Under the pieces are notes generated by a model that made no database searches, was not told the DNA's origin, and saw nothing but the letters and a program-made list of their open reading frames with translations. Below are positions 33,947-53,811 of a DNA stretch of 55,642 nt, one piece after another. A program made the position numbers and the translations under genes. The DNA is taken from the NCBI GenBank assembly GCA_048938005.1, contig JBHLMQ010000016.1, positions 1 through 55,642 of the forward strand. Direction: 5' to 3'. Position 1 is the stretch's first letter; each line of letters begins with the position of its first letter. This DNA is from Promethearchaeota archaeon (GTDB taxonomy: Archaea; Asgardarchaeota; Lokiarchaeia; Sigyniarchaeales; SOKP01).

Positions 33947-33954
33947 GATGTGAT

Positions 33955-35029: not shown

Positions 35030-35031
35030 AT

Positions 35032-36339: not shown

Positions 36340-37371
36340 ATGGATTTCATAACTTATTTTTTGAGTAAAATTGATAGATATCAAATAATCTCAATAATAG
36401 GGCTCGCTAAAAACGTCAGTAAGACTACTACATTAAACTACATAATAAAAAATATAAAAGATTATAAACTTGGTCTTACATCTATAGGAAGAGATGGAGA
36501 AAAGTACGATGCAATTACACGTTTACCAAAACCTCGCATATTTATTAAAAAAGGTACCATTGTAGCAACAGCGAGACAGAGTTTTGAAGAGAGTGAAGTC
36601 AAAATGGAAATATTAAAAACTACAAAATTTAATACTCCATTAGGTGAAATTTTGATATTAAAGGCATTGTGCGATGGATTTATTGAATTAGCAGGACCAT
36701 CAATAAATAAGTATTTACAAGAAATATGTTTAGAATTAAAAAATTTGGGATGTGATTTAATACTAATTGATGGTGCATTTGATAGGAGATCATATGCAAC
36801 TCCTATAATATCTGACGCTACAATTCTTTCAACAGGAGCTTCTGTGTCTGAAAATATGCAAAATGTGATTAATTTAACGGTTCATACCCTTGAATTATTA
36901 AATTTAGAATGTGAAATTAACCAAGAAATAGTAGAAATTGCTAATAATATTTTGGAAAAATCAAAAATTGGAATAATTGATGATAAAAATTCTATAAAAT
37001 TGTTAAACGTCTTAACTCCATTAGATGCTACTAAGGAAATTATTGATAATTTAGGTCAAAATTCAAAATATGTTGTAATAAATGGTGCTGTAACTGATCG
37101 ATTATTAGAAAATTTAATGAAATCTACAGAGAAGTATAAAGGAGTTACATTTTTAGTGGAAGATGCAACGAAACTATTTTTGAGTAAAAAAGTAAAGCAG
37201 AAATTCCAAAAAAAAGGTGGTTTTTTGAAAGTTTTAAATCCTATAAATATAATTGCTGTTACTATAAATCCAAATTCCCCATATGGATATGACTTTGATA
37301 AAAATAAATTTTTAAACATATTAAAAGAAAATCTTGATGTACCTGTTTATGATTTAGGAGTTAATGATTAA
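36340..37371 (+). CDS. kamB: lysine 5,6-aminomutase reactivation-associated protein KamB-like
   Basis: SIIGLAKN.SKTTTLN, GLTSIGRDGE, KP.I, TPLG, IDGA.DR, ILSTGAS; lies between kamA and kamD as in clostridial clusters. Confidence 0.75.
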   Translation: MDFITYFLSKIDRYQIISIIGLAKNVSKTTTLNYIIKNIKDYKLGLTSIGRDGEKYDAITRLPKPRIFIKKGTIVATARQSFEESEVKMEILKTTKFNTPLGEILILKALCDGFIELAGPSINKYLQEICLELKNLGCDLILIDGAFDRRSYATPIISDATILSTGASVSENMQNVINLTVHTLELLNLECEINQEIVEIANNILEKSKIGIIDDKNSIKLLNVLTPLDATKEIIDNLGQNSKYVVINGAVTDRLLENLMKSTEKYKGVTFLVEDATKLFLSKKVKQKFQKKGGFLKVLNPINIIAVTINPNSPYGYDFDKNKFLNILKENLDVPVYDLGVND

Positions 37372-37440
37372 TTTGGATAAACTTATTAAAAAATTATAAT
37401 AAATTTCATAATTGTGAAAAATATAAAGGAAGTGGGAAAT

Positions 37441-39012
37441 TTGCCAGAGAGTAAAATAAATTTGGATTTTAAAATAGTCGAAAAAGCAAGAGAAGCTGCA
37501 AAAAATATTGGAATAGAGACTCAAAAATTTATAGATCAACATACTACTACAACAATAGAAAGAACAGTTTGTAGATTACTTGGTATAGATGGTGTTGATG
37601 AGTTTGAAGTTCCTCTCGCTAATATTGTCGTAGATAATATAAACAAGGGAAAAGGTCTTGGATTCGGTGCTGCTATTTATATCGGTAATGCTATACTACA
37701 AACAAGTCTTGCACCTCAATTAATTGCAGAAAAAATCGCTATAAATGAATTAGATCTAACAAAATTGCCATTAAAAGATCTATCTGAAATCAAAGCAACT
37801 GTAAACATCATTGCTCAAGAGACCTTAGTAAAAATCTCTCAAAATAAGAAAAATAGAAACAAAATACTTGAAAAATATGGTGATAAGGAGGGCCCTTTAA
37901 TTTACGTCATCGTTGCTACAGGAAACATTTATGAAGATATTATACAAGCTCAAGCTGCAGCAAGACAAGGAGCAGATGTAATTGCAGTTATTAGATCTAC
38001 AGTACAAAGTTTACTCGATTACGTACCTTATGGTCCAACAACAGAAGGATTTGGTGGAACCTATGCTACTCAAGAAAATTTCCGTCTTATGAGAAAGGCT
38101 TTAGATGAAGTAAGTGAGGAATTAGGAAGATATATAAGACTGACTAATTATTGTTCTGGATTATGTATGCCAGAAATTGCTGCTATGGGTGCTTTTGAAA
38201 GGGTTGACATGATGTTGAATGATGCATTATATGGGATTTTATTCCGTGATATAAATATGAAAAGGACTATTATCGACCAGTATTTTTCAAGGATGATAAA
38301 TGCTTACGCGGGGGTAATTATAAATACTGGTGAAGATAACTACTTAACTACAGCCGATGCATATGAAGCAGCTCACACTGTTCTTGCTTCTGAATTTATT
38401 AATGAACAATTTGCATTACTTGCAGGATTAAAGGAAGAACAAATGGGCCTAGGTCATGCTTTTGAGATGAATCCAGAGTTGGAAAATGGATTTCTGTATG
38501 AACTTGCTCAAGCTCAAATGGCACGAGAGATATTTCCAAATGCTCCTTTAAAATATATGCCTCCTACGAAATATATGACTGGAAACATATTTAAAGGACA
38601 TGTTCAAGATGCTTTATTTAATATGATAACTGTAATAACAAATCAAAGAATTCATCTCCTTGGTATGTTGACAGAAGCTATTCATACTCCTTTCATGTCA
38701 GATAGAGCATTATCTATTGAAAATGCGCGATATATATTCAACAATATGAAGTCTATTGGTGAAGAAATAGTGTTCAAGAAAGGGGGATTAATGGAAAGAA
38801 GAGTTAGTGAAGTACTTAATAAAGCTTATGATTTATTAAAAGAAATAGAAAAAGAAGGATTATTTAAAACAATTGAAAAAGGGATCTTTGCTAATATTAA
38901 AAGAACAATAGACGGGGGTAAAGGATTAGATGGTGTATTTAAGAAAGAAAAAGAATATTTTAATCCCTTTATTGAACTTATGAATAAAGAATTAACAAAA
39001 GGAGGAAATTAA
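37441..39012 (+). CDS. kamD: D-lysine/beta-lysine 5,6-aminomutase alpha subunit
   Basis: ESK.NLD, HTT..ERTVCRLLGIDG, VATGNIYED, GGTYATQENF, NYCSGLCMPEIA, KYMPPTK; TTG 37441 preferred over GTG 37414. Confidence 0.96.
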   Translation: MPESKINLDFKIVEKAREAAKNIGIETQKFIDQHTTTTIERTVCRLLGIDGVDEFEVPLANIVVDNINKGKGLGFGAAIYIGNAILQTSLAPQLIAEKIAINELDLTKLPLKDLSEIKATVNIIAQETLVKISQNKKNRNKILEKYGDKEGPLIYVIVATGNIYEDIIQAQAAARQGADVIAVIRSTVQSLLDYVPYGPTTEGFGGTYATQENFRLMRKALDEVSEELGRYIRLTNYCSGLCMPEIAAMGAFERVDMMLNDALYGILFRDINMKRTIIDQYFSRMINAYAGVIINTGEDNYLTTADAYEAAHTVLASEFINEQFALLAGLKEEQMGLGHAFEMNPELENGFLYELAQAQMAREIFPNAPLKYMPPTKYMTGNIFKGHVQDALFNMITVITNQRIHLLGMLTEAIHTPFMSDRALSIENARYIFNNMKSIGEEIVFKKGGLMERRVSEVLNKAYDLLKEIEKEGLFKTIEKGIFANIKRTIDGGKGLDGVFKKEKEYFNPFIELMNKELTKGGN

Positions 39013-39013
39013 G

Positions 39014-39802
39014 ATGGGAGGAGGATTAAATTCAATGAAAAAGGAAGAATTTGATAAAAATCTTGATTTAACAAGAATTAAACCTTACGGAGATACAATT
39101 AATGACGGTAAGATACAATTAAGTTTTACCCTACCTGTAGAACATGATGAAAAAGCAATTGAAGCAGCAAAAGAGCTAACAGAAAAAATGGGACTAAAAG
39201 ATCCAGAAGTAGTATATCATACTTTATTAGACAAAGGATTCACCTATTTTGTAGTTTATGGAGAGTTAATTCATACAATCGATTATACTAAAATTCAAGT
39301 AGAATCTGTAGATGTAGAAGTAATGTCTAGAGACGAAATTAATGATTACATTAAAGAAAAGATTGGTCGTAAATTGGTTATACTTGGAGCGTCAACAGGA
39401 AGTGATGCTCACACTGTTGGAATAGATGCAATTATAAACATGAAAGGTTTTGCTGGTCATTATGGACTTGAACATTATGAAATGATAAAAGCCATAAACT
39501 TAGGCAGTCAAGTCTCAAATGAGGAATATGTTAAGCGAGCCATAGAACTTAAAGCTGATGTATTGCTTGTCTCCCAAACAGTTACACAAAAGGATATTCA
39601 TGTGAAAAACCTAACCCAATTAGTAGAATTATTGGAAGCCGAAGGAATAAGAGATCGTGTCATTTTAATTTGCGGTGGTACTAGAATAAGTAATGATTTA
39701 GCAAAAGAATTAGGTTATGATGCAGGTTTTGGACCAGGTACTTATGCTGAAATTGTGGCGTCTTTTGCTATTAAAGAGTTTGTAAGAAGAAAAGAAATAT
39801 GA
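39014..39802 (+). CDS. kamE: lysine 5,6-aminomutase beta subunit (AdoCbl-binding)
   Basis: KPYGDT.NDG.IQLSFTLP, DAHTVG (DxHxxG), NMKG (PLP Lys), VSQTVTQ, ELGYDAGFGPG. Confidence 0.96.
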   Translation: MGGGLNSMKKEEFDKNLDLTRIKPYGDTINDGKIQLSFTLPVEHDEKAIEAAKELTEKMGLKDPEVVYHTLLDKGFTYFVVYGELIHTIDYTKIQVESVDVEVMSRDEINDYIKEKIGRKLVILGASTGSDAHTVGIDAIINMKGFAGHYGLEHYEMIKAINLGSQVSNEEYVKRAIELKADVLLVSQTVTQKDIHVKNLTQLVELLEAEGIRDRVILICGGTRISNDLAKELGYDAGFGPGTYAEIVASFAIKEFVRRKEI

Positions 39803-39918: not shown

Positions 39919-42459
39919 TTAATAGTACACAATTTCTACAGATTCTTTTACTTTCCAGATGTCCCAGAAATGATATCTCATAGGTTTATAGGTCCACGTT
40001 TCATAAAGGGCTACTTGATCATATGCATGAGGGCTTATAATTACATTCCCTTCATTATCAAGGGTTATAAAGCCACTCTGTCCAGGTGGAATTACATTAA
40101 ATGCATTTGGAGTAGGATTCCAGAATCTATGCCACCATTTCTGTTTAGGCATTTCTACGACGTGATTATATGTACCACGATTCATATAATGCATAACTGG
40201 GGGTGGTAATGCTCCAAGTGAACTGGGAACCCATATTCGAACTGGAGTTAACCATGTTTCCATATCTGCACCTAATTCATCCCTTAAAGCTATCACAGCC
40301 GCTTTTAGTGCACGATTTATTACTTCATCTCTATCTTCTCCATTAAGATAATCATAATTTAGCGGTAACGTTGATTCAGGACCATCGAAAACATGAATTA
40401 TCGTGCTTGGCCATACTGTCGCAAGTTCACGATGGATGGGACCTATTGGAGGATAAACTGGAAGATCATCACTAAAAACCTCATCAAATATTTTCTCATA
40501 CCACTCATCAAATATCGTTAAACCAGGATCATCATAAGTAGCATCCGCGCTAGGCCATTGTGGCACTTCATAATCATTATAATGAAAATTCCAGGCTTCT
40601 AAATAAGGTAAAGCGGCTTGAATGTCTGGATCACTTGATCCACTCGCAGCATCTATTAAATAACCTAGAAGATTCATTCCACCTAAGTGAGTATAACCAG
40701 CATCTTTGTTAATTTCAATCATATCATCAAGAGTAAAATGGTCTTTTGCGGCCAGGAGTTGCATTATTCTTTTTACACGATGTCCTTCTCCCCAACCAGC
40801 ATCTGATTCGCCGTATGGCCAATTAGTTATCGGCTTATTGTTCCAATTTGCAAGCCAGCCCTGTTTAGGGTTGATGCATATTGGCATTTCATCAGGACCA
40901 GTAACCCCTATCCATTCTTCTTCTCCTGTTCCCCATAGAGGGAATCTGTCATCAATAGGTCTTTCATATAGACCTGTGGTAGGTTTTATGGGCCAAAAAC
41001 CTGAATGCCAATACCCTATATTTCCTTTTTTATCAGCCCAATAGAAATTATGAGCTGCTTCTACGTGTTTACAAGCAAAATCAAAATCTTTAATATTCTT
41101 TGCTTGTTGGAAAAGCGACCACCCTTCTTCAGCTGCCAGTTCTCTTTTGTAGTAAGGAGTCTTCATCGTAAAGCAAAGATTATTATCAAGATCCCATCCA
41201 ATAATAGGTCCATGGATTGTTCTGTATACATTTCTTTCTACATAGTAGGATTTTTTAAAACCATAAAATTTTTCAGTTCTCACTTCCATATCTATAAATT
41301 CACCGTTGTACCAGTATTGATATTGATTAGCAGGATTTAAAACTTCAATATAAGTATCCATATTATCTGTGACCCCTGTAGTAGACGTCCATGCGCCATC
41401 TTTACTAGCACCTATTAAAATAGAAGGGGCATGAGGCATCATCATACCTACTGCATCAATTCCCGCTCCATGCAACCCTACTTCGAGGACAATTTGTGGA
41501 ATTGATTGTCCCATTTGTGGACCACCTTGTTCAAGAGCATTTCTAGTTACAGATTTTGTAGGGCTGACAACCCAAGCATTGCTTCCGAACTTTGTTGGTA
41601 AGCCCAAAGATTCGAACAATGCTGCTTGACCCATTTTGAGGTTATTATATTTATGATACACATCCATAAAATCACAGTTATACCCATCTATTATACTATC
41701 CTTCCATGAATTAATATATTGTACATCAGGCCAAGCACCTTCTTCTATAGGGATTGTAACTTCTGCTCCCGGATCATTTTGTGGGAAATGATCATTAAAT
41801 ATATCCCATCCAACATCATTTCCATAAGCTTCTTGAAGTGCCATTAGTGCTGTTGCATATGATAATTCATCACCACCACACCCTCCAAATCTCCAAGCCA
41901 TCATAACTACTATAGCGACAGAATCTTCAATAGTCCAAGGTTCAATGGGAAGAAGTCCTTCAGGAGTGATAACACCTGGAAGATATTCTATAGGAATAAG
42001 GGAGGGATCTCCCTCTTCAAATAATCTTCTATGAGCTTCATTAATGTATTCATTAATACCATTGGTATAAGCAATCATCATTTCCTTAAGCTTTGCTTTA
42101 GGATTAGAAGGCACCCAGCTTTCAAATATTTCCAATAGTTCTTCTTTACTATATGCCATACTTCTGATATAATAATCAGCATCTAGGCTTGCCCATGGTA
42201 GAATTTCAGCTAAACTGCCATATCCCTGTCTTCGATATAGATCCGCTTGCCAGAGCCTATCCTGAGCCATAGTATAACCACAACCAAATGCTAATCCTTC
42301 TTTTGTGTTTGCGAAAATATGAGGAACACCATAATTATCTCTTATTATAGTGATTCTTCTACGACCCCAACCCCAACCACATGCATTCGCGGGGATGATT
42401 GGAATAATTAGAAACGAAGTTATAATTACCAATAAACAAATCCATAATTTTTTTTTCAT
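39919..42459 (-). CDS. secreted penicillin G acylase-family Ntn hydrolase
   Basis: Signal peptide MKKKLWICLLVII...ANA; IIRDNYGVPHI, AQDRLWQ, autocleavage GSNAW, GPQ, RTIHGP, ANWNNKP, PPGQSG. Confidence 0.92.
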   Translation of the reverse strand: MKKKLWICLLVIITSFLIIPIIPANACGWGWGRRRITIIRDNYGVPHIFANTKEGLAFGCGYTMAQDRLWQADLYRRQGYGSLAEILPWASLDADYYIRSMAYSKEELLEIFESWVPSNPKAKLKEMMIAYTNGINEYINEAHRRLFEEGDPSLIPIEYLPGVITPEGLLPIEPWTIEDSVAIVVMMAWRFGGCGGDELSYATALMALQEAYGNDVGWDIFNDHFPQNDPGAEVTIPIEEGAWPDVQYINSWKDSIIDGYNCDFMDVYHKYNNLKMGQAALFESLGLPTKFGSNAWVVSPTKSVTRNALEQGGPQMGQSIPQIVLEVGLHGAGIDAVGMMMPHAPSILIGASKDGAWTSTTGVTDNMDTYIEVLNPANQYQYWYNGEFIDMEVRTEKFYGFKKSYYVERNVYRTIHGPIIGWDLDNNLCFTMKTPYYKRELAAEEGWSLFQQAKNIKDFDFACKHVEAAHNFYWADKKGNIGYWHSGFWPIKPTTGLYERPIDDRFPLWGTGEEEWIGVTGPDEMPICINPKQGWLANWNNKPITNWPYGESDAGWGEGHRVKRIMQLLAAKDHFTLDDMIEINKDAGYTHLGGMNLLGYLIDAASGSSDPDIQAALPYLEAWNFHYNDYEVPQWPSADATYDDPGLTIFDEWYEKIFDEVFSDDLPVYPPIGPIHRELATVWPSTIIHVFDGPESTLPLNYDYLNGEDRDEVINRALKAAVIALRDELGADMETWLTPVRIWVPSSLGALPPPVMHYMNRGTYNHVVEMPKQKWWHRFWNPTPNAFNVIPPGQSGFITLDNEGNVIISPHAYDQVALYETWTYKPMRYHFWDIWKVKESVEIVYY

Positions 42460-42683: not shown

Positions 42684-43946
42684 ATGCCAACTTCAAAAGA
42701 ATTTATTGAAATGGATCTTAAATATTGTGCGCACAATTACCATCCAATCCCCGTTGTTATTTCACGTGCAGAAGGAGTTTGGGTTTATGATCCAGAAGGT
42801 AAGAAGTATCTTGATTGTTTATCAGCTTATTCAAGTCAAAATACTGGTCATTGTCATCCAGAAATTATTGCTTCTTTAAAGGAACAAGCAGATATTGTTA
42901 CACTTACTTCTCGAGCATTTCATAATGATATGATGGGTCCTTTTTTAAAAATGTTAGCAGACGTTGTAGGGCCACATATTAATGATCCCACAAATTCCGG
43001 TATAATGTCAATTCCTATGAATACGGGAACAGAAGCAATATCGACTGGTTTAAAAATGGCAAGAGCATGGGGGTATATAAAAAAGAAAATACCCAAAAAT
43101 GAAGCTAAAATCATAGTTTGCCGAAATAATTTTCATGGAAGAACCATTACCATTGTTGGTTTTAGTTCTGATATATCAGTGGTTCGCTATTATGGCAATT
43201 TTGGACCATATACCCCTGGTTTTATTATTATCCCTTATGGAGATGCTGAAGAATTAGAAAATGTTATTTTGGAAATTGGACCTGAAAAAGTAGCTGCTTT
43301 TTTGGTTGAGCCTATCCAAGGAGAAGCTGGCGTTAATGTCCCTCCAGAAGGATATTTAAGAAAAGCTCGAGAAATCTGTACAAAATATAATGTGTTGATG
43401 ATGTTAGATGAAATTCAAACTGGTTTTTGCAGAACGGGAGAGTTGTTTGCTTGTGATCATGAAAATGTAAAACCAGATATGCTACTATTAGGGAAAGCCC
43501 TTGGAGGCGGAGTGTATCCTGTGTCTGCCTGTGTAACCACAAGAGAAATTATAGGCCCAGATGTGATAATTCCTGGAAGTCATGGAAGCACTTTTGGAGG
43601 AAATCCTTTGGCTTGTGCTGTGGCAATGAAATCTATAGATATTCATCTACGTGAGAATCTTGCCGAGCGAGCAAAGGAGATGGGTGCTTACTTTATAAAA
43701 AGATTAAGAGAAATTGGTGAGAAAAGAACTAAAATTCCAATTAAAGATATAAGGGGGAAAGGGTTATTAATTGCTGTCGAATTTTCGGAGGATGCTAGAC
43801 AAATTGTTGAAGAACTCAAAGATAATGGAATATTAGCAAAAGATACACATTCTACAACTATTCGTTTTGCCCCACCCTTGGTTATTACGAAAGATGAGCT
43901 TGATTGGGCACTTGAAATCATAGAAAAAGTATTTGTAAAGCAATAA
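42684..43946 (+). CDS. rocD: ornithine--oxo-acid aminotransferase
   Basis: AHNYHP.PVV, LSAYS..N.GHCHP, LTSRAFHND, PMNTG.EA, FHGRT, EPIQGEAG, DEIQTG, LGKAL, HGSTFGGNPLAC. Confidence 0.93.
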   Translation: MPTSKEFIEMDLKYCAHNYHPIPVVISRAEGVWVYDPEGKKYLDCLSAYSSQNTGHCHPEIIASLKEQADIVTLTSRAFHNDMMGPFLKMLADVVGPHINDPTNSGIMSIPMNTGTEAISTGLKMARAWGYIKKKIPKNEAKIIVCRNNFHGRTITIVGFSSDISVVRYYGNFGPYTPGFIIIPYGDAEELENVILEIGPEKVAAFLVEPIQGEAGVNVPPEGYLRKAREICTKYNVLMMLDEIQTGFCRTGELFACDHENVKPDMLLLGKALGGGVYPVSACVTTREIIGPDVIIPGSHGSTFGGNPLACAVAMKSIDIHLRENLAERAKEMGAYFIKRLREIGEKRTKIPIKDIRGKGLLIAVEFSEDARQIVEELKDNGILAKDTHSTTIRFAPPLVITKDELDWALEIIEKVFVKQ

Positions 43947-43949
43947 AGA

Positions 43950-44867
43950 CTATTTATCTATAAAAAAATGAGTCCCAGCTCTTCCTTCTAATGCCTCTTC
44001 AATTTTTTCAATTGAAGTTATAATCGCTTTTTCTCCACCTTTTTCCATAAAATTTATTATTGCTTGAATTTTAGGGCCCATACTTCCAGCAGGAAATTGT
44101 CCTTCTTCCAAATATTTCTTTGCTTCTGCGATAGTAAGCTTATCTAAATCTTTTTGGTTAGGTGTACCATAATTAAGAGCAACTTTCTCAACATCAGTAG
44201 CAATGAGTAGTATATCCGCTCCTATTTGTTCAGCTAATTTAGAACTAGCAAGATCTTTATCTATTACAGCTTCAACACCATATAATCTTTTTGCTTCTTT
44301 TATAACGGGTATACCCCCTCCACCGCATGCAATTACAATCCAACTTTCTAATTCCATTAACTTCTTTATTTCACGCCATTGATAAATTTTTATTGGATTA
44401 GGAGAAGGAACAACTTGACGCCATCCTTTAGCTGTTTTAACCTGACCTGGTTTTGTGCGAACAGGATATGCAGGACCAATAGGTTTTGTGGGATTTTTAA
44501 ACGCAGGATCTTCAGCATCAACTTTCACATAGGTTAATACTGTTAAAAAAAGTTTTTCTTCATCGAGATTTATTTTCATAAGCTCCTCGTCTAATGTGCT
44601 CTCAATCATGAATCCAATCTGACCTTGGGTTTCTGCTACTAATATTTGTAACGGTCTTTTTGATACAAATTCAGTTGCTTCCTGTTGAAGTAAGAGATTA
44701 CCAACTTGTGGGCCATTACCATGTGTTATAATTATATTGTAGTTTTTTGCTAATTCTGCAATTTGGCTAATTGGAACTCTTAAATTCCGAAATTGTTCCT
44801 CAGTAGTGCCTTCTTCACCAAATTTTATTAAAGCATTTCCACCGAGTGCGACAATTAATGTTTTCAA
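43950..44867 (-). CDS. arcC: carbamate kinase
   Basis: ALGGNAL, THGNGPQVG, F.NPTKPIGP, R.VVPSP, GGGGIPV, EAVIDKD, GSMGPK. Confidence 0.96.
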   Translation of the reverse strand: MKTLIVALGGNALIKFGEEGTTEEQFRNLRVPISQIAELAKNYNIIITHGNGPQVGNLLLQQEATEFVSKRPLQILVAETQGQIGFMIESTLDEELMKINLDEEKLFLTVLTYVKVDAEDPAFKNPTKPIGPAYPVRTKPGQVKTAKGWRQVVPSPNPIKIYQWREIKKLMELESWIVIACGGGGIPVIKEAKRLYGVEAVIDKDLASSKLAEQIGADILLIATDVEKVALNYGTPNQKDLDKLTIAEAKKYLEEGQFPAGSMGPKIQAIINFMEKGGEKAIITSIEKIEEALEGRAGTHFFIDK

Positions 44868-44933
44868 AAAAAATTCTCCAATATATATTTAATTTCCACA
44901 AATGGAAAAAATAAATATTATTTAACTTATTAT

Positions 44934-45866
44934 TTAAAATTTATCTCGTAAAAAGAGCATAATAGCTTTTTGGATATGTAATCTATTTTCAGCTTGGTCA
45001 AATACAATTGATTGAGGACCGTCAATAACCTTTGCCGTTTGTTCATAATCCCTCATAGCTGGCAAGCAATTCATAAACACAGCATTGGGTTTTGCTGTTA
45101 ACATAATTGATTTTGTCACTTGAAATGGCATAAAAACTTTTTTTCTTTCTTCTTCTTTGTCTGCTGGAATACCATAACTCATCCAACTATCAGTATAAAT
45201 AACATCAGCGTCTCTAGCAGCTCCCATTGCTTCATGAACTACTCTTACATCAGCTCCAGTTTCTTTAGAAAGTTCTGATACCTCATTCAAAACGATTTTC
45301 TCCGGAGAATATTGTGGATCAGCTGGGCAAGCTACATCCATTCTCCAGCCAAACATAGCACACATCCTCATTAAATCATATGTTACATTATTGTAAGCAT
45401 CCCCAAAATATGATAACTTTAAGTTATCAAGCTTACCTTTTTTCTCTTTTATAGTCAAAAAATCACCTAGGATTTGACATGGGTGTGCGAAATCATCCAA
45501 CATATTTATCACCGGGACATCGGCATATTTAGCGAGATCCCAAATATCTTGCCTTTTAAAAACCCTGGCAGCGATGATATTAACAAATCTAGAAGCAACT
45601 TTCGCTGTATCCGAAATGTTTTCCTTTTTCCCTAAGGGTGAATCTTTTATTGAGTAAAAAATTGCATGCCCTCCTAATTGTTGCATGCCAGTCTCAAAAG
45701 ATATTCGAGTTCTTAAGGAAGGCTTTTCAAATAGCATTAAGAGGGTTTCTCCTTCTAAAAAAGAACTAAATTTTTTAGGATTTTTCTTTAACTCAATTGC
45801 TTTATTAATAACCCTCTCGCATTCAGCCTTTGAAAAATCTGAGACTTTTAATAGATGTCTAACCAT
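44934..45866 (-). CDS. arcB: ornithine carbamoyltransferase (Giardia/metamonad-like signature)
   Basis: KPSLRTR, HPCQ, NNVTYDLMR, YTDSWMSY, FMNCLPA.R..EQT..VIDGP.S, QAENRLH. Confidence 0.93.
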   Translation of the reverse strand: MVRHLLKVSDFSKAECERVINKAIELKKNPKKFSSFLEGETLLMLFEKPSLRTRISFETGMQQLGGHAIFYSIKDSPLGKKENISDTAKVASRFVNIIAARVFKRQDIWDLAKYADVPVINMLDDFAHPCQILGDFLTIKEKKGKLDNLKLSYFGDAYNNVTYDLMRMCAMFGWRMDVACPADPQYSPEKIVLNEVSELSKETGADVRVVHEAMGAARDADVIYTDSWMSYGIPADKEEERKKVFMPFQVTKSIMLTAKPNAVFMNCLPAMRDYEQTAKVIDGPQSIVFDQAENRLHIQKAIMLFLRDKF

Positions 45867-45974
45867 TTTCAGTATTTTAGAATTTTAGATAATAATTAAG
45901 TATTAAAAAGAAAGATTAGATATAAATCAAAATATATGAATTACAACAGCTTATATTATCCAATTTCAGAAGAT

Positions 45975-47141
45975 TCATTTCAGTTCTTCTTCAACACAAA
46001 AGTCTCTGTTACATGAGAGATTATTTAAGATTTCATTATCCTTTGGAGTTGTCTTTTCTGTTATTAGCCGACTTAAAAGTTCTCCTAAACCTGGTCCCAG
46101 CATAAAGCCTTGGCCACACATACCAACTGCATTAATATAACCCTCTATTTCACCTACTTTACCAATTATAGGATTTCCATCTGGTGTCATCGGATACAGA
46201 CCACGCCAAGTTCTTCTAACTTTTATATTTCTTAACCGTGGCAACAAATGTATCATTCTTTTTGAAATCTGAGGTAGGAAAGAACTTGTTTCTTGTCTGT
46301 CAATACCAGGGATATTTGGTTCAGGTGTTAAGCAAAAAATAATTTTTCCTTCTTTATTTTGATAGAAATAATAGTTGCTTGAATTTCCAAATTTAGGGTC
46401 GATAAATGGTTTAATATCAACAATCATGGATGAGAAAAATTTCTTTACCGGCTCAGTTATTCCTGCTTCATGAGATTCTGGTTCTACTGGAGTAATAACA
46501 CTAACCATATTACCAATCTCTTTTGCATGAGCTCCTGCAGCATTGATAATAGAGTTAGTTTTATATTTTCCATTAGAAGTTTTAATCCCTACAACTTTAT
46601 CTTTTTTAGTTAAGATATCAATAACTTTTTCATTAAAATGATATTCCGCTCCTGAATTTTTTGAGTATCTATAGAATGAATGTAAGGCCAATAAAGGTGA
46701 AGCATTACCATCTTCAGGACTATGCGTTCCACCTAACAATTCATTTTCATTGATTCCAGGTAAAATCTCTTTGATTTTTTCAGCGTCAACATAGTTAATA
46801 TTCAAACCGTAACTTTTTTGAACTTTTACTGTATCCTTTAATAATTTTTCATGTTCTTCTGTGAATGCTAAGAAAGTATAACCACCTTGATTCCACCAGA
46901 TATCATCTCCATACTTTTCTTCCCAAGAAGAAAAAATTTCTATTGACCTTTGGCATAACCATATCTTTCCTTTATGTGAGTGAGTAGCTCTAATACCACC
47001 AATAGCATGTTTATTGTCTGCTTGAGCAACTGAAGGCAAATAATCGATAACCAATGTTTTTAATCCATCATTTACAGTAGCTAGAGCAGTTGGGACGCCT
47101 ACACTTCCAGCACCGATGATGATAACATCATATTCAACCAT
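45975..47141 (-). CDS. FAD-dependent amine oxidoreductase (proline dehydrogenase/sarcosine oxidase beta-like)
   Basis: GAGSVG, INAAGA.A, ITEP, R.W.G.Y.MTPDGNPIIG, G.GFMLGP. Confidence 0.88.
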   Translation of the reverse strand: MVEYDVIIIGAGSVGVPTALATVNDGLKTLVIDYLPSVAQADNKHAIGGIRATHSHKGKIWLCQRSIEIFSSWEEKYGDDIWWNQGGYTFLAFTEEHEKLLKDTVKVQKSYGLNINYVDAEKIKEILPGINENELLGGTHSPEDGNASPLLALHSFYRYSKNSGAEYHFNEKVIDILTKKDKVVGIKTSNGKYKTNSIINAAGAHAKEIGNMVSVITPVEPESHEAGITEPVKKFFSSMIVDIKPFIDPKFGNSSNYYFYQNKEGKIIFCLTPEPNIPGIDRQETSSFLPQISKRMIHLLPRLRNIKVRRTWRGLYPMTPDGNPIIGKVGEIEGYINAVGMCGQGFMLGPGLGELLSRLITEKTTPKDNEILNNLSCNRDFCVEEELK

Positions 47142-49226
47142 CTAAGGCTCCTCCTTTTTATTTTTAACATTAGCAAATATACCCATCGGAACTTCAATAA
47201 ACAGAGGACGTTTTGTACCAGGAATAACATCGTCAACCGATACTCCTTCTTCCCGAAATATCTTCTCGATTAAAGGAGTGCATGTTTTACCTCCACAAGC
47301 TCCCATTCCTACTTTAGTTAAAGCCTTCAATTCATTAAAATCTCTGACTCCTGACCGTATCCACCTTCGAATTTCACCTACTGAAACACGTTCACATCTA
47401 CATACTATAATTTTATCATCAGTAAATGATCTTTGGTAAACATCTATTGGCTCATTAAATTTAGTCTCATAAAGTTTAATTGCTACAGCTTGTTTTGCCA
47501 ATTCTGATGTTAATTTAATAGTTATTAGTTGAGTCTTAGGAAATTCTTTCAATATTCTCGATCTATGAATTTCATATGCCCCTAATTCTCCTTCATTGCT
47601 AATAACAATAACTTTTTGTCCTTTCTCTAATTTCTTTTCAGTAAGTTCAAACGGAAAAGTAACTAGTGGATTTTTTTTATCTTTACGATAATCAATTAAT
47701 ACAACAGCTAAACCAGGACACACAGCTACACATTTTCCACATCCAATACAATCTTTTTCACCCTTAAAATATGGTAATTGGGTAATTAAATCATCAATAG
47801 TCTCAATTTGTTTTTGATCACATACAGTTGTACATGGATTACAGGGAATTTCTTGATTACAATAAAAAACAGGATAGATTCCTTCTTCTTTGAATTTTAT
47901 TTTCGTTTCAATAGGTTGTGGAGGTTTTGCTTTCATGACTTCTGCAAAATTTTCTAATTCATTAATATCTTCTGAAATTTCAATTCCAATTTCTCTAAGA
48001 ATCTTTAAAGCTTCAATTCTTCCAGTAAATATAGCAGCAGAAGCTTCAGCGATCTCTTGAGCATCACCAGCAACCCAAACCTTAAATCCAAATTCTTTTG
48101 CTTTCTGATAAAATTCATCGACAGGATTTAAACCTATAGCAATTAAAATAGTATCACAAACAAATGTTTTTTCTGTTCCAGATATAATATTAAAATCCCT
48201 ATCAATTTGAGCAATTGTTATAGATTCTACTGATTTATCCCCATTAGCAGAGACGATCGTATGACTTGTGTAGATTGGAACACCTAATCTTCTAAGTTTG
48301 TCTTCATGGACTTTATAACCTCCACATAGAGGTAATGCTTCAATTAAACCAATGACATCTATTCCTGCTTGAATTGCATGATATCCAGCAATTAATCCAA
48401 CATTTCCTCCTCCAACAATAAAAATTTTGTCTGCAGCTTTTACTAAATCACGATTTACCAATGTTTGAAAAGCTCCAGCACCATATACTCCGGGAAGGGT
48501 ATTTCCAGGAAAAACTAACATTTTTTCCCTTGCACCAGTAGCAATTAATAAGTACTTAGGCTTCACCAAAACATATTTATTATTATCCTTTAAAATTCCT
48601 ACCATCCCATCGCTAAATACTGCTAAACAAACACTATTTAACCAAATTTTAATTTTAGATAATCCTCGAATAGATTCCCCTAAAATTTTTGCAATATCTA
48701 TGCCACGTTTACCAGCATAAACATCTTTTTGTGAGCCAAAAAATTTATGTGTTTGAAGAACCAATTTACCTCCAAGTTCAGCTTTATCGTCAATTAAGAT
48801 CACCTCAACATTATTTTCTCCTAATATTTTTGTGGCTGATAATCCTGCTGGACCAGCACCTATAACCAATACTTCTATGTCTATAATTTCAGAATCTCCA
48901 ACAGTCACAGGATTATCAATTGCAGGTAATTCTGGTAATCCATTACAACTTTCTATTACCATCCCTTCTTTAAGAGGTGTCATGCATGCTTTTACTGGAA
49001 TACCATATACAATAACATTACATTGAGCACATTGACCATTAGCACAAAACATACCCTGAGGGCTGTTGTCTTTTGGGTGATAACCAAAAATTTTTATTTT
49101 ATTAAGAAAAAGCGCTGATGATATAACCATTCCTTCAAATCCATTTAACTTTATACCATCAAAACTAAAATTAATCTTCTTTCTTTCTGGTATCTCTAAA
49201 ATAGGATGTGTTATTATATCTTCCAT
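47142..49226 (-). CDS. proline dehydrogenase/sarcosine oxidase alpha-like multidomain subunit (2Fe-2S + FAD/NAD + 4Fe-4S + BFD-like)
   Basis: CANGQCAQC..KAC; GAGPAGL, GGKLVLQTHKFFG, ATGARE, GGGNVG; CNPCTTVC, CIGCGKCVAVCPG; CRCE...GMGACGGKTC..RP. Confidence 0.88.
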   Translation of the reverse strand: MEDIITHPILEIPERKKINFSFDGIKLNGFEGMVISSALFLNKIKIFGYHPKDNSPQGMFCANGQCAQCNVIVYGIPVKACMTPLKEGMVIESCNGLPELPAIDNPVTVGDSEIIDIEVLVIGAGPAGLSATKILGENNVEVILIDDKAELGGKLVLQTHKFFGSQKDVYAGKRGIDIAKILGESIRGLSKIKIWLNSVCLAVFSDGMVGILKDNNKYVLVKPKYLLIATGAREKMLVFPGNTLPGVYGAGAFQTLVNRDLVKAADKIFIVGGGNVGLIAGYHAIQAGIDVIGLIEALPLCGGYKVHEDKLRRLGVPIYTSHTIVSANGDKSVESITIAQIDRDFNIISGTEKTFVCDTILIAIGLNPVDEFYQKAKEFGFKVWVAGDAQEIAEASAAIFTGRIEALKILREIGIEISEDINELENFAEVMKAKPPQPIETKIKFKEEGIYPVFYCNQEIPCNPCTTVCDQKQIETIDDLITQLPYFKGEKDCIGCGKCVAVCPGLAVVLIDYRKDKKNPLVTFPFELTEKKLEKGQKVIVISNEGELGAYEIHRSRILKEFPKTQLITIKLTSELAKQAVAIKLYETKFNEPIDVYQRSFTDDKIIVCRCERVSVGEIRRWIRSGVRDFNELKALTKVGMGACGGKTCTPLIEKIFREEGVSVDDVIPGTKRPLFIEVPMGIFANVKNKKEEP

Positions 49227-49257
49227 TTAAAATCTAAATTAATCTTTTTAAGAATAT

Positions 49258-51438
49258 TCATTGGTGAGGTTTTATGAACTTTATGACATCTTCATAATCA
49301 ATTCCTAGTTCTTTTACTTTTTCAATTGTAGGGCAACCATTTTGATTCCATCCCCGTTCTTTATAGACAGCATCTTGAAGCTTCGAATACTGTTCTTCGC
49401 GATGTTTTCGAAGAATTTTAATCTTTTCTTCTGTCATCTTATCAGTTAAATCAAATCCTAATTCTTTAAGTTGGTTATCATATCTATCTTGGCGACTCTC
49501 GTATTCTAAAGGTAAAACTGGCCCCATTGCTCTATAAGGTAGATTTGAGTCACCTTCACGTAAGCCTTGTCCTAAACGAATATTAAAAATTCTTTGAAAA
49601 TTGTAAACTCGTTCTGACATTTTAATAAGATCATCTGGAGTTGAATTTCTACCCGTTACAGCTGAAAAATATTTTGCATACCATTCAACATGATAAGGTA
49701 TTCTTGCTTGAAGGAGTTCTCCTGTGGTAGGATCTTTTACAGGAAGTTCTTTATTTTGGGGCCCTATAGCATCATTCCAAGGTAATTTACAAAGCCCATT
49801 CAATCCGAACCAGGTTCGCCAATAAGGAAACCACCTTAATGCCTTTGCTTTATCTTCAAAAGTTGGAATTGTATTTCTTACCATATCTTCAAAAATTAAC
49901 CAGGCTTCATCATGTTGAGGTCCTTTGAGTGCTAACCCGTATCCTCCTTGTTGAGCGAGAGATTCTTTTGTTATATATTCTGAGAATTCTAGACCTTTAT
50001 GTTCCATACCAATATCTTGAAGAAATTGAGGATCCCCACCATAATTTTCAGCAAAATATTTCTTCATTTCTCTTATCCCTTTTCCCACAATTACTCCAAA
50101 ACCTTCTCCTCTCGCCATCTGATGAAGTAATTCTAAAGCTGCTTCAGCATTACCAAAATTAAGTTCAAGACCTCCAGTAATTTCTTTATCAAGTATTCCT
50201 TCTTCATAACATTCCATTACAAACCCAATCCCTGTACCCGTTGATATAGTGTCCAATCCATATGTATCACAATAGAAATTCACTTCAAGAACCCATTTTA
50301 TATCCCAAACACCCCAATTTGAACCACAACCAGCTATAGTTTCATATTCTGGTCCATCTACGATCACTTCTTGACCTTTAAAAGGACCTGTCAAAACTTT
50401 ATGTCCAGTTGTATAGTGTGAGCAACTCATTGTACAACCAATCCAGCACCCATCCGTCCCTTCTTTTACATGATACACCTTTCGCATTCTCTCGCGACTA
50501 TAAGGTATATTTTTATCTTTTATATCTTTATGAGAACCATAACGAAAATTTTCAACTGGTAAAAGATCAACAACATTCATTATATCTGGTAAATATCCAG
50601 TTCCTACACTCCTCATTTCATTCTGCGAGGAGTCAATATCAACAATTTCCTTACTATGTATTTTCCCTAACTCTCTAGCAGCTTCTAAATCTGCAGGATT
50701 ATTTGATTTTACCGTGACTCTAGGAGCACGACAGACCAAAGCCTTTATTTTTTTATTAGAAAATACTGTTCCTATACCGCCCCGCCCCGCTTGTTTAACA
50801 GAAGCATATTTACGTGTTGTAGTGTACCAAGAGAAATTTAACATCCCCCATTTTGAGTGTTTTGCAGCTGGACCACTGCTTACAACCGAGATCTGTCTTT
50901 TTTCAGCATCATCTTTCGCATATTTTTCTGTTAATTGTTGGTTGAGTTCATGCGAGTATTCTGAAAATCCATCTGAATCTTGTACTTGATATATTTGGAC
51001 TAAGCCTTCTATCCCATCAATAGAGATAATCACATCGCTTTCTGCTTTTCCTTGGATCTCAATAGCATCAAATCCAGAAAATTTTAGATACGGTCCAAAA
51101 TATCCACCCACGTTACTGTCTATAATTATACCTGTTAAAGGAGATATTGAAGTAACTAAGGATTTACCTGATCCTGGATAAAAAATACTACCTCCTAATG
51201 GTCCGGAAGAAATACAAATTTCATTTTCAGGGTCATTCCATTTAATTATACGATCTTTTGGGATAGAATTCCACATAACCCATAAATCAAAACCCTTTCC
51301 TCCGATAAATTTTTCTTTCATTTCTTCAGAGACAAGCTTTATAGTAATCTCATTTCTTGAAAGGTTGACATATAAAGTTCGATTTGCATAACCCTTTTGA
51401 ACTTCTTGGATTTCAAATTTCTTTTCTGCCAAAATCAT
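49258..51438 (-). CDS. aor: aldehyde:ferredoxin oxidoreductase family protein, paralog 3 (long type)
   Basis: FIGGKG, SPLTG...DSNVGGYFGP, QAGRGG.G, CWIGCTMSC, GPEYET, CDTYGLDTIS, KGPQHDEAWL, RGW...G.PT. Confidence 0.9.
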   Translation of the reverse strand: MILAEKKFEIQEVQKGYANRTLYVNLSRNEITIKLVSEEMKEKFIGGKGFDLWVMWNSIPKDRIIKWNDPENEICISSGPLGGSIFYPGSGKSLVTSISPLTGIIIDSNVGGYFGPYLKFSGFDAIEIQGKAESDVIISIDGIEGLVQIYQVQDSDGFSEYSHELNQQLTEKYAKDDAEKRQISVVSSGPAAKHSKWGMLNFSWYTTTRKYASVKQAGRGGIGTVFSNKKIKALVCRAPRVTVKSNNPADLEAARELGKIHSKEIVDIDSSQNEMRSVGTGYLPDIMNVVDLLPVENFRYGSHKDIKDKNIPYSRERMRKVYHVKEGTDGCWIGCTMSCSHYTTGHKVLTGPFKGQEVIVDGPEYETIAGCGSNWGVWDIKWVLEVNFYCDTYGLDTISTGTGIGFVMECYEEGILDKEITGGLELNFGNAEAALELLHQMARGEGFGVIVGKGIREMKKYFAENYGGDPQFLQDIGMEHKGLEFSEYITKESLAQQGGYGLALKGPQHDEAWLIFEDMVRNTIPTFEDKAKALRWFPYWRTWFGLNGLCKLPWNDAIGPQNKELPVKDPTTGELLQARIPYHVEWYAKYFSAVTGRNSTPDDLIKMSERVYNFQRIFNIRLGQGLREGDSNLPYRAMGPVLPLEYESRQDRYDNQLKELGFDLTDKMTEEKIKILRKHREEQYSKLQDAVYKERGWNQNGCPTIEKVKELGIDYEDVIKFIKPHQ

Positions 51439-51606
51439 AGAATTTCATTCCTTAAAGTTCTAATTGTTAAATTAAAAACATAATTATAAACTATGGATGA
51501 TTTAATGAGACTTTAGAATTAAATATTATTTATACAAATCTAAGTTAAGTATTTGAAAAAAAGATATAGAATGATCTTAAATTGTTTTATTCCGAAAAGG
51601 GTTAAT

Positions 51607-52170
51607 TTAAATTTTATTAGCTAAATCTTTAGCCCATTTACGAATCTCGTCCCAGTTTCTTGAATCATAAACTCCTGGTTCTGTTTCTTTAAATCCTGCT
51701 GGAATGAAATTATCTTTTTCAGCATCTAGGGCTTTTCTATAAATTTTACCCATCTGATTATAGTCCCAGATACCTCCAAACATATTCATTGAGATTGGAT
51801 TTAAACCATATTTAGAAGCTTTACCTTTAAGATATTTTTTAGTTATTCTATCAATTTCATCATGTTTTCCTTTATATTCCATGAGTGCTCGCCCACCAGA
51901 CGACACGAAGAGTGCCACTTTCTTTTTTTTGAGCTCATTGCTAAACTTATTTAAAAATGCTTTAGCTTTACTCGTCCACATGTCCATTTTCATTCCACTA
52001 GCAACTATAACAAGTTCAAATTTTGATATATCTTTGACCTTCTCTTCTTTGAGATTTACAGTTTTTACTTCAAATCCTTCACCTTGAAAAACTTTGGCAA
52101 TTTCTTCTGCGGTACCAGCTGTTGCTCCATAACGAGTACCATACGCAATTAATATTTTGGTTTTTTCCAT
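51607..52170 (-). CDS. flavodoxin-domain protein (HemG-like long-chain flavodoxin)
   Basis: ILIAYGTRYGAT..AEEIA, VALFVS, FGG, D.RNWDEIRKWA. Confidence 0.85.
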   Translation of the reverse strand: MEKTKILIAYGTRYGATAGTAEEIAKVFQGEGFEVKTVNLKEEKVKDISKFELVIVASGMKMDMWTSKAKAFLNKFSNELKKKKVALFVSSGGRALMEYKGKHDEIDRITKKYLKGKASKYGLNPISMNMFGGIWDYNQMGKIYRKALDAEKDNFIPAGFKETEPGVYDSRNWDEIRKWAKDLANKI

Positions 52171-52203
52171 TTTCTTCCCTCTATTAAAATCTAATTTTTA
52201 TTG

Positions 52204-53544
52204 TTATTTTTTTAAGAATTTATTAATAAAATCATCAAGAACTTCTTCAATAGTAGGACTTCCGATTGGCTCAATATCATACGATACTTTCACAATTGGT
52301 TTATTTGTTTTAATTAATTTAGTTAAGTCTATAGGACTTCCATTTAGGATTATATCTGCCTTCGCATTATTGAGTGTTTTTTCTAAGTCTTCTATTTGTT
52401 GGTCTGTGTATCCCATAGCAGGTACAATTTGTGTAATCTGAGGGAAATCTTCGAATACCTCTTTCATAGATCCTACTAAATATTTTCTGGGGTCCATAAT
52501 TTTAGCTTCTGCATTTATAGCAGCAACATATGCCGCTCCAATTGACATGCCTCCATGAGTCAAAGTAGGGCCATCCTCGACGACTACAACTTTCTTTCCT
52601 TTCAGTTTTAAATGATCTTCTGCTTTAACTACTGAATTTGTATAGACTTTTACGGCTTTTGGATTTAAATCATTAAGGTTTTTCTCCACAATTTTTACAT
52701 CTTCTGGTTTGGCAGTATTCATTTTGTTTATGACAAAAACATCTGCATACTTTGCATTAACTTCTCCGGGATGATATTTAATTTCGTGTCCCGGTCTTAA
52801 TGGATCAGTCACAACAAAAAGTAAATCTGTAATATAAAAAGATATCTCATTATTTCCTCCATCGAATATAATCACATCTGCTTCTTTTTCAGCCTCCCGA
52901 ATTATTTTCTCATAATCAACTCCAGAATATATTACTAATCCTTGCTCAATATAAGGTTCATATTCTTCCCGTTCTTCAATAGTACAATCATATTTATCTA
53001 AATCCTCATATTTCTCAAATCTCATTACATTTTGTTGAACTAAGTCTCCGTAAGGCATTGGCTCGCGAATCGCAACAACTTTGTACCCTTTACTCTTTAA
53101 ATACCGATATGTTGCTCGAGAAACTTGACTTTTTCCACACCCCGTCCTAACAGCACAGATTGCAATAACAGGCTTATTAGCCTTGAGTTGAGTGAATTTT
53201 CCTGAAATTAATCGGTAATTAGCACCAGCAGCGAGTGCTCTTGAAGCTTTATGCATGACTTCCTCATGAGAAACATCTGAATAGGCAAAAACAACCTCAT
53301 CAACGTTATGTTTCTTAATCAAATCTTCAAGCATGTCTTCTGAGACCATTGGAATTCCTTTTGGATATAATTTTCCTGCCAATTCTGCAGGAAACTTTCT
53401 TTCAGCTTCATCAGTAGTACCAATGTTTTGTTCTCCAGCAATAGTAAACGTTATAACATCATATTCTGCATTGTCTCTAAAAACTGTGTTAAAAACATGG
53501 AAATCGTAACCTAATGCTCCAATGATAATAACTTTTTTTTTCAT
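52204..53544 (-). CDS. COG2403 P-loop protein, arginine synthetase (ArcE)-like
   Basis: DFH.FN..FRDN, VFAYSDV, AVRTGCGKSQ, PMPYGDL, TIEEREEYE, GVDY, DGGNN, YHPGE, VEDGPTLTHGGM, PAMGY; clustered with arcB/arcC with no arginine deiminase in the window. Confidence 0.8.
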   Translation of the reverse strand: MKKKVIIIGALGYDFHVFNTVFRDNAEYDVITFTIAGEQNIGTTDEAERKFPAELAGKLYPKGIPMVSEDMLEDLIKKHNVDEVVFAYSDVSHEEVMHKASRALAAGANYRLISGKFTQLKANKPVIAICAVRTGCGKSQVSRATYRYLKSKGYKVVAIREPMPYGDLVQQNVMRFEKYEDLDKYDCTIEEREEYEPYIEQGLVIYSGVDYEKIIREAEKEADVIIFDGGNNEISFYITDLLFVVTDPLRPGHEIKYHPGEVNAKYADVFVINKMNTAKPEDVKIVEKNLNDLNPKAVKVYTNSVVKAEDHLKLKGKKVVVVEDGPTLTHGGMSIGAAYVAAINAEAKIMDPRKYLVGSMKEVFEDFPQITQIVPAMGYTDQQIEDLEKTLNNAKADIILNGSPIDLTKLIKTNKPIVKVSYDIEPIGSPTIEEVLDDFINKFLKK

Positions 53545-53703
53545 TTTAAGTACCTAGAAAATATTAACCTTATTGATCATCTTACTTAATTTAAGACAAA
53601 TTATTAAGATTTTCAATTCTATCAAGGGAATGATGACCCACCGTTAAATATGGCCATAACAAACGAGAAGAATAAAATAGGTTTAATAGTTTTAAACACT
53701 TAG

Positions 53704-53811
53704 ACAAAAATATATAAGATTCTTAATAATTATTCATAAAAAATTTAATTAGTTATAGGGCGTAATCTTTAACAAAAATATATATATAATATTTGTAATA
53801 ATTATTCATAA
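53704..53811 (+). repeat. tandem imperfect direct repeat (duplicated BRE/TATA-like promoter)
   Basis: ACAAAAATATATA at 53704 and 53772; TAATAATTATTCATAA at 53724-53739 and 53796-53811. Confidence 0.6.

Follow-up and report, generated by a model that had tools for sequence, protein, structure and literature searches.

How might an anaerobic archaeon draw on arginine and proline when neither arginine deiminase nor pyrroline-5-carboxylate (P5C) dehydrogenase can be found in its genome? The question is raised by eight adjacent genes at positions 42684-53544 of contig JBHLMQ010000016.1 (assembly GCA_048938005.1) from an Asgard archaeon, which we analysed over its full length of 55,642 nucleotides, hereafter the window. 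On balance, we consider it probable that these genes encode an extended version of the ArcE pathway described in Thermococcus kodakarensis, used for amino-acid catabolism by an arginine-auxotrophic, peptide-fermenting host. This reading is built on gene identities assigned by homology, on synteny and on gene absences from the genome, from which we infer activities and the direction of flux.

In the proposed pathway, ArcE would convert arginine, ADP and Pi into citrulline, NH3 and ATP. The sole ornithine carbamoyltransferase (OTC) of the genome would then phosphorolyse citrulline to ornithine and carbamoyl phosphate, the latter serving carbamate kinase for the synthesis of a second ATP. Homology to the T. 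kodakarensis pathway thus predicts a yield of 2 ATP per arginine. Ornithine would be transaminated by RocD to glutamate 5-semialdehyde/P5C, and proline would enter at the same point through a proline dehydrogenase complex made of a fused alpha-gamma-delta chain and a beta subunit; RocD and proline dehydrogenase both yield glutamate semialdehyde/P5C. The last step is the least certain: a long protein of the aldehyde:ferredoxin oxidoreductase (AOR) family would oxidise the semialdehyde to glutamate, deliver the electrons to ferredoxin or to the flavodoxin encoded next to it, and stand in for P5C dehydrogenase.

The gene cluster and its distribution

The cluster consists of the following genes, whose families were assigned by Pfam and NCBIfam profile searches of the window proteins.

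52204-53544, minus strand: arcE, COG2403 protein, arginine synthetase orthologue (446 aa); 57% identity to T. kodakarensis ArcE
51607-52170, minus strand: flavodoxin (187 aa); Flavodoxin_5 3.4e-16, Flavodoxin_1 4.3e-8
49258-51438, minus strand: aor, long AOR-family aldehyde:ferredoxin oxidoreductase (726 aa); AFOR_N 159 bits and AFOR_C 327 bits
47142-49226, minus strand: pdhA, fused alpha-gamma-delta chain (694 aa); Fer2_4, Pyr_redox_2, 4Fe-4S dicluster and BFD-like 2Fe-2S domains
45975-47141, minus strand: pdhB, FAD-dependent catalytic beta subunit (388 aa); Pfam DAO 1.6e-56
44934-45866, minus strand: arcB, ornithine carbamoyltransferase (310 aa); TIGR00658 353.6 bits, cut-off 280.85
43950-44867, minus strand: arcC, carbamate kinase (305 aa, TTG start); TIGR00746 374.7 bits, cut-off 358.25
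42684-43946, plus strand: rocD, ornithine--oxo-acid transaminase (420 aa); TIGR01885 520 bits, cut-off 378.4

The open reading frames (ORFs) that we recovered are identical, in coordinates and gaps, to those given by an earlier annotation made from the DNA letters alone (the sequence-only reading). Along the minus strand from arcE to arcC, the ORF list gives intergenic gaps of 33, 168, 31, 0, 108 and 66 bp, and rocD is convergent on arcC, with 3 bp separating their stop codons. The window is a complete contig (C13) of a 3.72-Mb genome in 101 contigs, with a completeness of 95.3% and a contamination of 7.2%; all gene absences reported here are conditional on this 95% completeness. In four public DNA runs, short contigs span the region and connect the genes across every junction, showing that the cluster is no assembly artefact. 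Its order is also beyond chance, since it recurs in all 13 fetched loci of the host family, that is, the taxonomic family of the source genome.

As the sequence-only reading supposed, the host belongs to the Asgard archaea; the closest relatives bear Asgard names at NCBI, though mutually conflicting ones. Proteins 88-94% identical to the window ArcE are recorded under organism names of different phyla (Thor-, Odin-, Hod-, Hermod- and Promethearchaeota), so that the public lineage name of this group of metagenome-assembled genomes (MAGs) is unreliable. The assignment to Asgard archaea is supported by small GTPases, typical of the eukaryote-like genes of these archaea: a Ras-family gene lies in the window at 10845-11459 on the minus strand (PF00071, 168.6 bits), and Ras, Arf and RagA-like GTPases adjoin pdhAB loci in other genomes (L173, L174 and L171; L numbers denote fetched loci and G numbers sampled genomes). 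The host genome has a low GC content, and the organism occurs in sediment and mangrove metagenomes.

In order to compare gene order across Asgard MAGs, we mapped 40 arcE loci from 40 genomes of the host phylum by tblastn. All 10 host-family loci of this set, which come from genera g1, g3, g4 and g5, show the order arcE-(flavodoxin)-aor-pdhA-pdhB-arcB. Next come arcC and rocD in five of them (L008, L009, L010, L019 and L020) and arcC alone in L018, while L007 and L034 run into contig ends. Three more loci of the family (L046-L048) agree as far as they extend and end before arcB. The pair arcE-aor is thus kept in 13/13 host-family loci and is followed by pdhA-pdhB in 12/13, no pdhA-pdhB being present in the fetched stretch of L048. 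In four genera, arcE and arcB enclose aor-pdhA-pdhB, with intergenic distances of 0-168 bp.

Beyond the host family the arrangement dissolves, in keeping with a synteny check that finds the order kept in this family and scattered elsewhere in Asgard archaea. A sister family carries arcE-arcB-arcC-rocD on one strand (L036) or arcE-arcB-arcC (L049), without aor or pdhAB. The remaining 29 loci have arcE without these genes, save that L027 has arcC next to it and L030 a weak arcB-like match about 5 kb away. Outside the host family, the genes for AOR and PdhB are remote both from arcE and from one another, as in G074, where they are located at 0.60, 1.76 and 2.35 Mb. Among 85 loci of other lineages, 18 have arcC and 15 have arcB no more than 6 kb from arcE, which agrees with the legend of Fig. 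S2B in the supporting information (SI) of the paper describing ArcE (PMC11032458).

Five host-family genomes (G008, G049, G057, G104 and G121) lack arcE and the AOR gene; four of them also lack pdhB, of which G057 retains a fragment at a contig end. G008 and G049, which are 99% complete and belong to the same genus as the host, have no arcE, AOR, pdhB or argG. The lack of the cluster and of argG alike in these two genomes fits a dispensable, accessory catabolic module in auxotrophs. The simplest history would be an insertion of aor-pdhAB into an older arcE-arcB-arcC-rocD operon, followed by loss of the whole cluster in some lineages.

The proposed route from arginine to ornithine

Over 439 of its 446 residues, the window ArcE is 57% identical to T. 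kodakarensis ArcE (E=0). The reference sequence is the ORF at 3977-5320 (minus strand) of L126, an exact match to BAD86389.1 (T. kodakarensis KOD1, TK2200), which is named 'Arginine synthetase ArcE' by UniRef and 'cyclic 2,3-diphosphoglycerate synthase' by NCBI. The window protein matches zero Pfam or NCBIfam models. Two motifs, RTGCGKS (R133-T134-G135-x-G137-K138-S139) and DGGNN (D228-G229-G230-N231-N232), are invariant in 18 aligned Asgard sequences and identical in TK2200; we read them as putative Walker motifs. The authors of the T. kodakarensis study described a likeness of ArcE to P-loop proteins and inferred the nucleotide site from a predicted structure (PMC11032458).

The best 120 of 8000 homologues scored are 82-94% identical to the window ArcE, and homologues bear automatic names such as 'predicted GTPase' or 'cyclic 2,3-diphosphoglycerate synthase'. 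The gene is single-copy in the host genome, and homologues occur in 127/151 sampled genomes of the host phylum and in 126/131 genomes of the class that includes T. kodakarensis, the latter at 45-64% identity (50-58% for full-length matches). In a FastTree phylogeny of 125 ArcE sequences, the window protein falls in a 16-member clade of the host and sister families (support 100), which lies inside the same shallow family as the Thermococcales sequences, T. kodakarensis ArcE included. The match to the solved cyclic 2,3-diphosphoglycerate (cDPG) synthetase 9sxb has E=5e-4 and covers residues 201-326 only (126 residues); T. kodakarensis ArcE itself matches the solved cDPG synthetase at 3e-10, also over a partial alignment. 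Full-length identity, a tree that places both proteins in one tight family, and the weak partial match to cDPG synthetase bear out the proposal of the sequence-only reading: the COG2403 protein is orthologous to ArcE rather than a cDPG synthase. The predicted activity is therefore the reversible reaction Arg + ADP + Pi <-> citrulline + NH3 + ATP.

The same tree does not gather the Asgard sequences into one group and forces at least 3 changes. Identities of the window ArcE are 55-58% to Thermococcales, about 53-56% to Chloroflexota and 44-58% to most other Asgard archaea. These patterns may point to horizontal transfer, or else the family may be poorly resolved and evolve very slowly.

In the host, arcE co-occurs with arcB and arcC and without arcA. 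The arcB gene encodes the only OTC of the genome, the other tblastn match being just 27% identical (contig C87). RocD exceeds the equivalog cut-off of TIGR01885, though it remains under the stricter one of NF003145 (530 vs 656). Neither arginase nor arginine deiminase is encoded in the window. A search of the whole genome returned 0 matches to PF02274, the arginine deiminase family, to which control genomes respond, and found no arginase, the lone PF00491 match being an agmatinase. The claim that the cluster operates without deiminase, first made for the window, can thus be extended to the genome for arginine deiminase and arginase alike. The PF00491 gene had been a candidate arginase; we rejected it because it reaches the agmatinase model TIGR01230 (176 bits, cut-off 174) and lies between argS and the deoxyhypusine synthase gene.

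Searches of the host genome for arginine genes found no argG, argC or ornithine cyclodeaminase gene and no argH above cut-off. It does contain carB of carbamoyl-phosphate synthase (CPS; 1467 bits) and proC (275 bits). In T. kodakarensis, the arginine synthetase pathway yields ATP and ornithine (PMC11032458). The direction is probably catabolic, although ArcE works near equilibrium and this genome also has no detected argG, argH or argC. A fermentative setting fits the other contents of the contig, which carries lysine-fermentation-type genes at 31816-39802, upstream of the cluster, and two further AOR genes.

A second carbamate kinase fragment, 75% identical to ArcC, lies at 2088-2828 of contig C33 (2830 bp) and runs off its end. 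Given the contamination of the genome, it is probably a related strain's sequence introduced by binning.

Proposed proline oxidation and the possible fate of glutamate semialdehyde

Residues 4-376, 436-580 and 604-687 of PdhA align to three consecutive T. kodakarensis ORFs (G176:C1:96192-97319, 97696-98109 and 98159-98413), which are followed by a beta-like gene. PdhA is thus alpha, gamma and delta, separate in Thermococcales, joined in one chain, with beta as the next gene at a 0-bp gap; this matching of segments upholds the fused proline dehydrogenase described in the sequence-only reading. The solved relatives of PdhA are 2gag_A and 1y56_A. For PdhB the best is 1y56_B (3.3e-52), the next match being at 3e-22. 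The PDB title of 1y56 is 'sarcosine oxidase', and we take this entry to be the P. horikoshii L-proline dehydrogenase complex. PdhB shares 31-33% identity with the beta subunits of T. kodakarensis and has only sub-threshold matches in NCBIfam, to ThiO, SoxB and D-proline dehydrogenase.

The fused pdhA-pdhB pair is shared by 9/10 further Asgard loci, showing that the alpha-gamma-delta fusion is general in the phylum; pdhB itself occurs in 32/151 Asgard genomes. In L173 (G041:C3), a lone distant pdhB homologue (47%) has no fused pdhA beside it, and an arginase-family gene lies two genes upstream, at 6054-7001.

The AOR of the cluster finds its best solved relatives in the P. furiosus enzymes AOR (1aor, 8e-53) and FOR (1b25, 1e-45), aligning to 1aor in three stretches within query residues 19-713. 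Its scores are far below the NCBIfam cut-offs (NF007354, 112.6 vs 868 bits; NF040818, GAPOR, 43 vs 1300), which places it outside the named subfamilies AOR sensu stricto and GAPOR. AFOR_C matches identify 15 AOR paralogues in the genome, and the clustered one has the longest open frame (728 aa vs 580-656). The metal may be tungsten, which the sequence does not tell from molybdenum. Orthologues of this AOR clade occur in 60/151 Asgard genomes. A flavodoxin gene lies between arcE and aor in some relatives only (L007, L018, L135, L139, L140 and L048, where L007 and L140 both represent one contig of G113), and its product is a possible electron carrier.

We found no P5C dehydrogenase: TIGR01237 exceeds its cut-off in 0/151 Asgard genomes and, in the host family, matches in 0/25 genomes even at E<=1e-100. 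The single generic Aldedh protein of the host genome is below every NCBIfam cut-off. As P5C dehydrogenase was not found and the AOR gene lies between arcE and pdhA, this AOR is the obvious candidate for the semialdehyde oxidase. That it acts on glutamate semialdehyde is nevertheless a tentative assignment, to which we give somewhat less than even weight. Slightly more doubtful is the complete proposal that, in the host family, it is a glutamate-5-semialdehyde:ferredoxin/flavodoxin oxidoreductase replacing P5C dehydrogenase, which would bring arginine, ornithine and proline to glutamate with conservation of low-potential electrons, and that its gene reached the older operon together with pdhAB.

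The action of AOR-family enzymes on a C5 semialdehyde has a precedent: a 2025 review gives glutaric semi- or dialdehyde as the supposed substrate of FOR and states that the P. furiosus enzyme has its lowest Km for glutaric dialdehyde and binds glutarate (PMC12096430). Our literature search returned no paper joining FOR, semialdehyde, arginine and proline. Roy et al. reportedly linked FOR to arginine, lysine and proline catabolism in 1999.

Two further AOR paralogues are encoded in the window. The one at 625-2547 (minus strand) is preceded by the gene of a 920-aa Pyr_redox_2/Fer4_20/CCG protein (2753-5515) and followed by that of a 4Fe-4S protein (67-624); the other, at 19941-21821 (plus strand), lies among genes for Fe-ADH, 3-hydroxyacyl-CoA dehydrogenases and an aminotransferase. 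The genes at 31816-39802 (plus strand) form, by their Pfam families, a co-oriented set resembling lysine (or ornithine) fermentation: a class-III aminotransferase, a BKACE/Kce beta-keto-acid cleavage enzyme, two unassigned ORFs of about 345 aa, lysine 2,3-aminomutase (radical SAM and LAM_C), D-lysine 5,6-aminomutase alpha (PF09043, 901 bits) and its B12-binding beta subunit. A penicillin-amidase-family gene (39919-42459) separates this set from the arginine/proline cluster. On the other side, the AT-rich divergent region upstream of arcE contains a direct repeat of about 45 nt with a spacing of about 70 nt, at 53699-53739 and 53767-53811. Each copy contains the palindromic core AATAATTATT. The window has two exact copies of the 13-mer, and the 168 fetched loci have none. 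Nor do these loci contain an exact copy of TGAATAATTATTA, a motif that occurs twice upstream of arcE and for which we claim no operator role.

Competing readings and known systems

Some of the evidence, given here and with the alternatives below, weighs against the proposed pathway. The gaps of 168 and 108 bp may hold internal promoters, so that a single arcE-arcC transcript is only a possibility. In L006 and L035, neither arcC nor rocD is adjacent to the other genes despite several kb more sequence. L-proline is the substrate suggested for the dehydrogenase by the 31-33% identity of the beta subunits and by the match to 1y56_B (3.3e-52).

The alternative that survives best, though we think it rather unlikely, accepts ArcE, ArcB, ArcC and RocD as proposed and takes AOR, flavodoxin and pdhAB as merely co-located. 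AOR would then oxidise other aldehydes of 2-oxoacid metabolism, and ProC or an unrecognised dehydrogenase would remove P5C. The number of AOR paralogues in the genome, its one generic aldehyde dehydrogenase and the sister-family operon lacking aor and pdhAB (L036, L049) all favour such a view, as do the neighbourhoods outside the host family. There, the neighbours of the AOR clade are unrelated in all 15 loci (L148-L162): tblastn detected no arcE, pdhA or other cluster gene within 1.5-kb flanks, and Pfam searches on the neighbours in 13 of these loci identified FeoB, Moco-biosynthesis, PEPCK and other proteins, with no recurring partner. The pdhAB genes outside the host family likewise have no recurring partner in 10 loci, and unrelated neighbours in 9/10. 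With orthologues in 35 genomes without pdhB, the substrate of AOR need not be glutamate semialdehyde. Evidence against accidental co-location comes from the lodging of aor-pdhA-pdhB between arcE and arcB in four genera, from its presence or absence together with arcE in the host family, and from the failure to find P5C dehydrogenase there. AOR orthologues are also found in 25/32 pdhB-positive vs 35/119 pdhB-negative genomes, a co-occurrence that is suggestive only because these genomes are kin.

A second alternative, which we judge improbable, is that of a reversible or anabolic hub making arginine from proline or glutamate in an organism without ArgG and ArgH. Proline would be oxidised to P5C by proline dehydrogenase, or glutamate reduced to the semialdehyde by a reversed AOR, and a reversed RocD would form ornithine. 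OTC would then produce citrulline with carbamoyl phosphate from CPS or carbamate kinase, and ArcE would use ATP and NH3 to yield arginine. Run the opposite way, the hub would make proline from arginine via RocD and ProC. ArcE is indeed reversible, with a deltaG0' of -6.8 kJ/mol and growth on citrulline (PMC11032458), and the presence of CPS and ProC in a genome where argG, argH and argC were not found makes a biosynthetic or interconverting role possible, all the more as the cluster holds the only OTC. Michimori et al. suggest a biosynthetic role for ArcE where ArgG and ArgH are lacking, T. kodakarensis making arginine from citrulline (PMC11032458).

The distribution of argG bears on this alternative. 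Across 41 host-family genomes, argG is over cut-off in 24. Among the genera that carry the cluster, it is found in 0/5 genomes of g1, 1/5 of g3, 1/5 of g4 and 5/5 of g5, against 4/4 of g2 and 5/5 of g6, where arcE is absent. Of 19 genomes scored for both genes, nine have arcE only, five argG only, two both and three neither. The cluster and argG are thus partly anticorrelated in the host family, a pattern that may reflect one or two evolutionary events among kin genomes and is equally compatible with ArcE replacing ArgG/ArgH and with auxotrophs gaining a catabolic module. The catabolic module is favoured because the whole ornithine branch is missing (argC), beyond the last two steps, and because G008 and G049 are viable without argG or the cluster, which points to auxotrophy as a sustainable state. 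Carbamate kinase is moreover treated as a catabolic marker in the T. kodakarensis paper (PMC11032458), the neighbouring genes are fermentative, and AOR and flavodoxin have no obvious anabolic use.

That the COG2403 protein might be a cDPG synthetase unconnected to arginine, as the NCBI name of many close homologues and the weak match to 9sxb could suggest, has a negligible probability: the characterised T. kodakarensis ArcE bears the same name, which is thus uninformative, the full-length identity to ArcE contrasts with 126 residues aligned to cDPG synthetase, and the gene is linked to arcB and arcC in the host and in other phyla. We rejected this identity when no full-length similarity to a solved or characterised cDPG synthetase was found.

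The catabolic pathway that we favour is a new arrangement of mostly known parts, in which only the extension is new. Lokiarchaeum and Prometheoarchaeum are listed with arcE and arcC and without arcA in SI Table S1 of Michimori et al. 2024 (PMC11032458), where the position of arcE beside arcB/arcC in some genomes is also noted; in this respect, the sequence-only reading overstated the novelty. We found no other paper on Asgard ArcE, on AOR with proline dehydrogenase, or on OTC with carbamate kinase in these archaea, and the supplementary trees S10 and S11 and map S2 of that paper may show Asgard clusters. Three features appear to be unpublished: that the operon is extended to include rocD, that a fused proline dehydrogenase, a long AOR and a flavodoxin are inserted in one Asgard family, and that the genomes concerned lack ArgG, ArgH, ArgC and P5C dehydrogenase.

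ArcE is a discovery of 2024, its role having been examined so far in Thermococcus. The cluster provides a clear genomic example from Asgard archaea, which among prokaryotes are most closely related to eukaryotes, with a predicted ATP-conserving arginine route joined to ornithine and proline oxidation. It bears on the replacement of ArgG/ArgH by ArcE, because the host genomes have neither. It also provides a candidate answer to how anaerobic archaea without P5C dehydrogenase dispose of glutamate semialdehyde, and a candidate role for one of many orphan AOR paralogues. If the role proposed for this AOR is correct, genomic context would for the first time have assigned a physiological amino-acid-semialdehyde substrate to an AOR clade; should the AOR step be wrong, the remainder would be an ordinary extension of the published pathway.

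Compared with known systems, the host shares with the T. kodakarensis pathway (TK2200, ArcB and ArcC; PMC11032458) an ArcE orthologue encoded by a single-copy gene, OTC and carbamate kinase, the lack of arginine deiminase, and arginine as the likely source of ornithine. It differs in having arcE, arcB and arcC in one cluster, whereas arcE of T. kodakarensis has no adjacent arcC (L126), in adding rocD, the fused proline dehydrogenase, AOR and flavodoxin to that cluster, and in possessing CPS. Its pathway resembles the arginine deiminase pathway (arcABC) in the steps of OTC and carbamate kinase and in drawing ATP from carbamoyl phosphate, but arcA is lacking, and the unrelated P-loop enzyme ArcE would take the first step and conserve a second ATP. 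The order alpha, gamma, delta followed by beta is that of the L-proline dehydrogenase of Thermococcales, whose four subunits are also encoded together, while the first three form a single 694-aa chain in the host. Both AFOR domains of P. furiosus AOR and FOR (1aor, 1b25) are present in the host AOR, which is about 120 residues longer owing to several scattered insertions and sits in an arginine/proline operon. Finally, the proposed route shares with that of P5C dehydrogenase/PutA the intermediate glutamate semialdehyde/P5C and the end product, but in place of a P5C dehydrogenase, which was not found in the host, it would use a ferredoxin-linked AOR.

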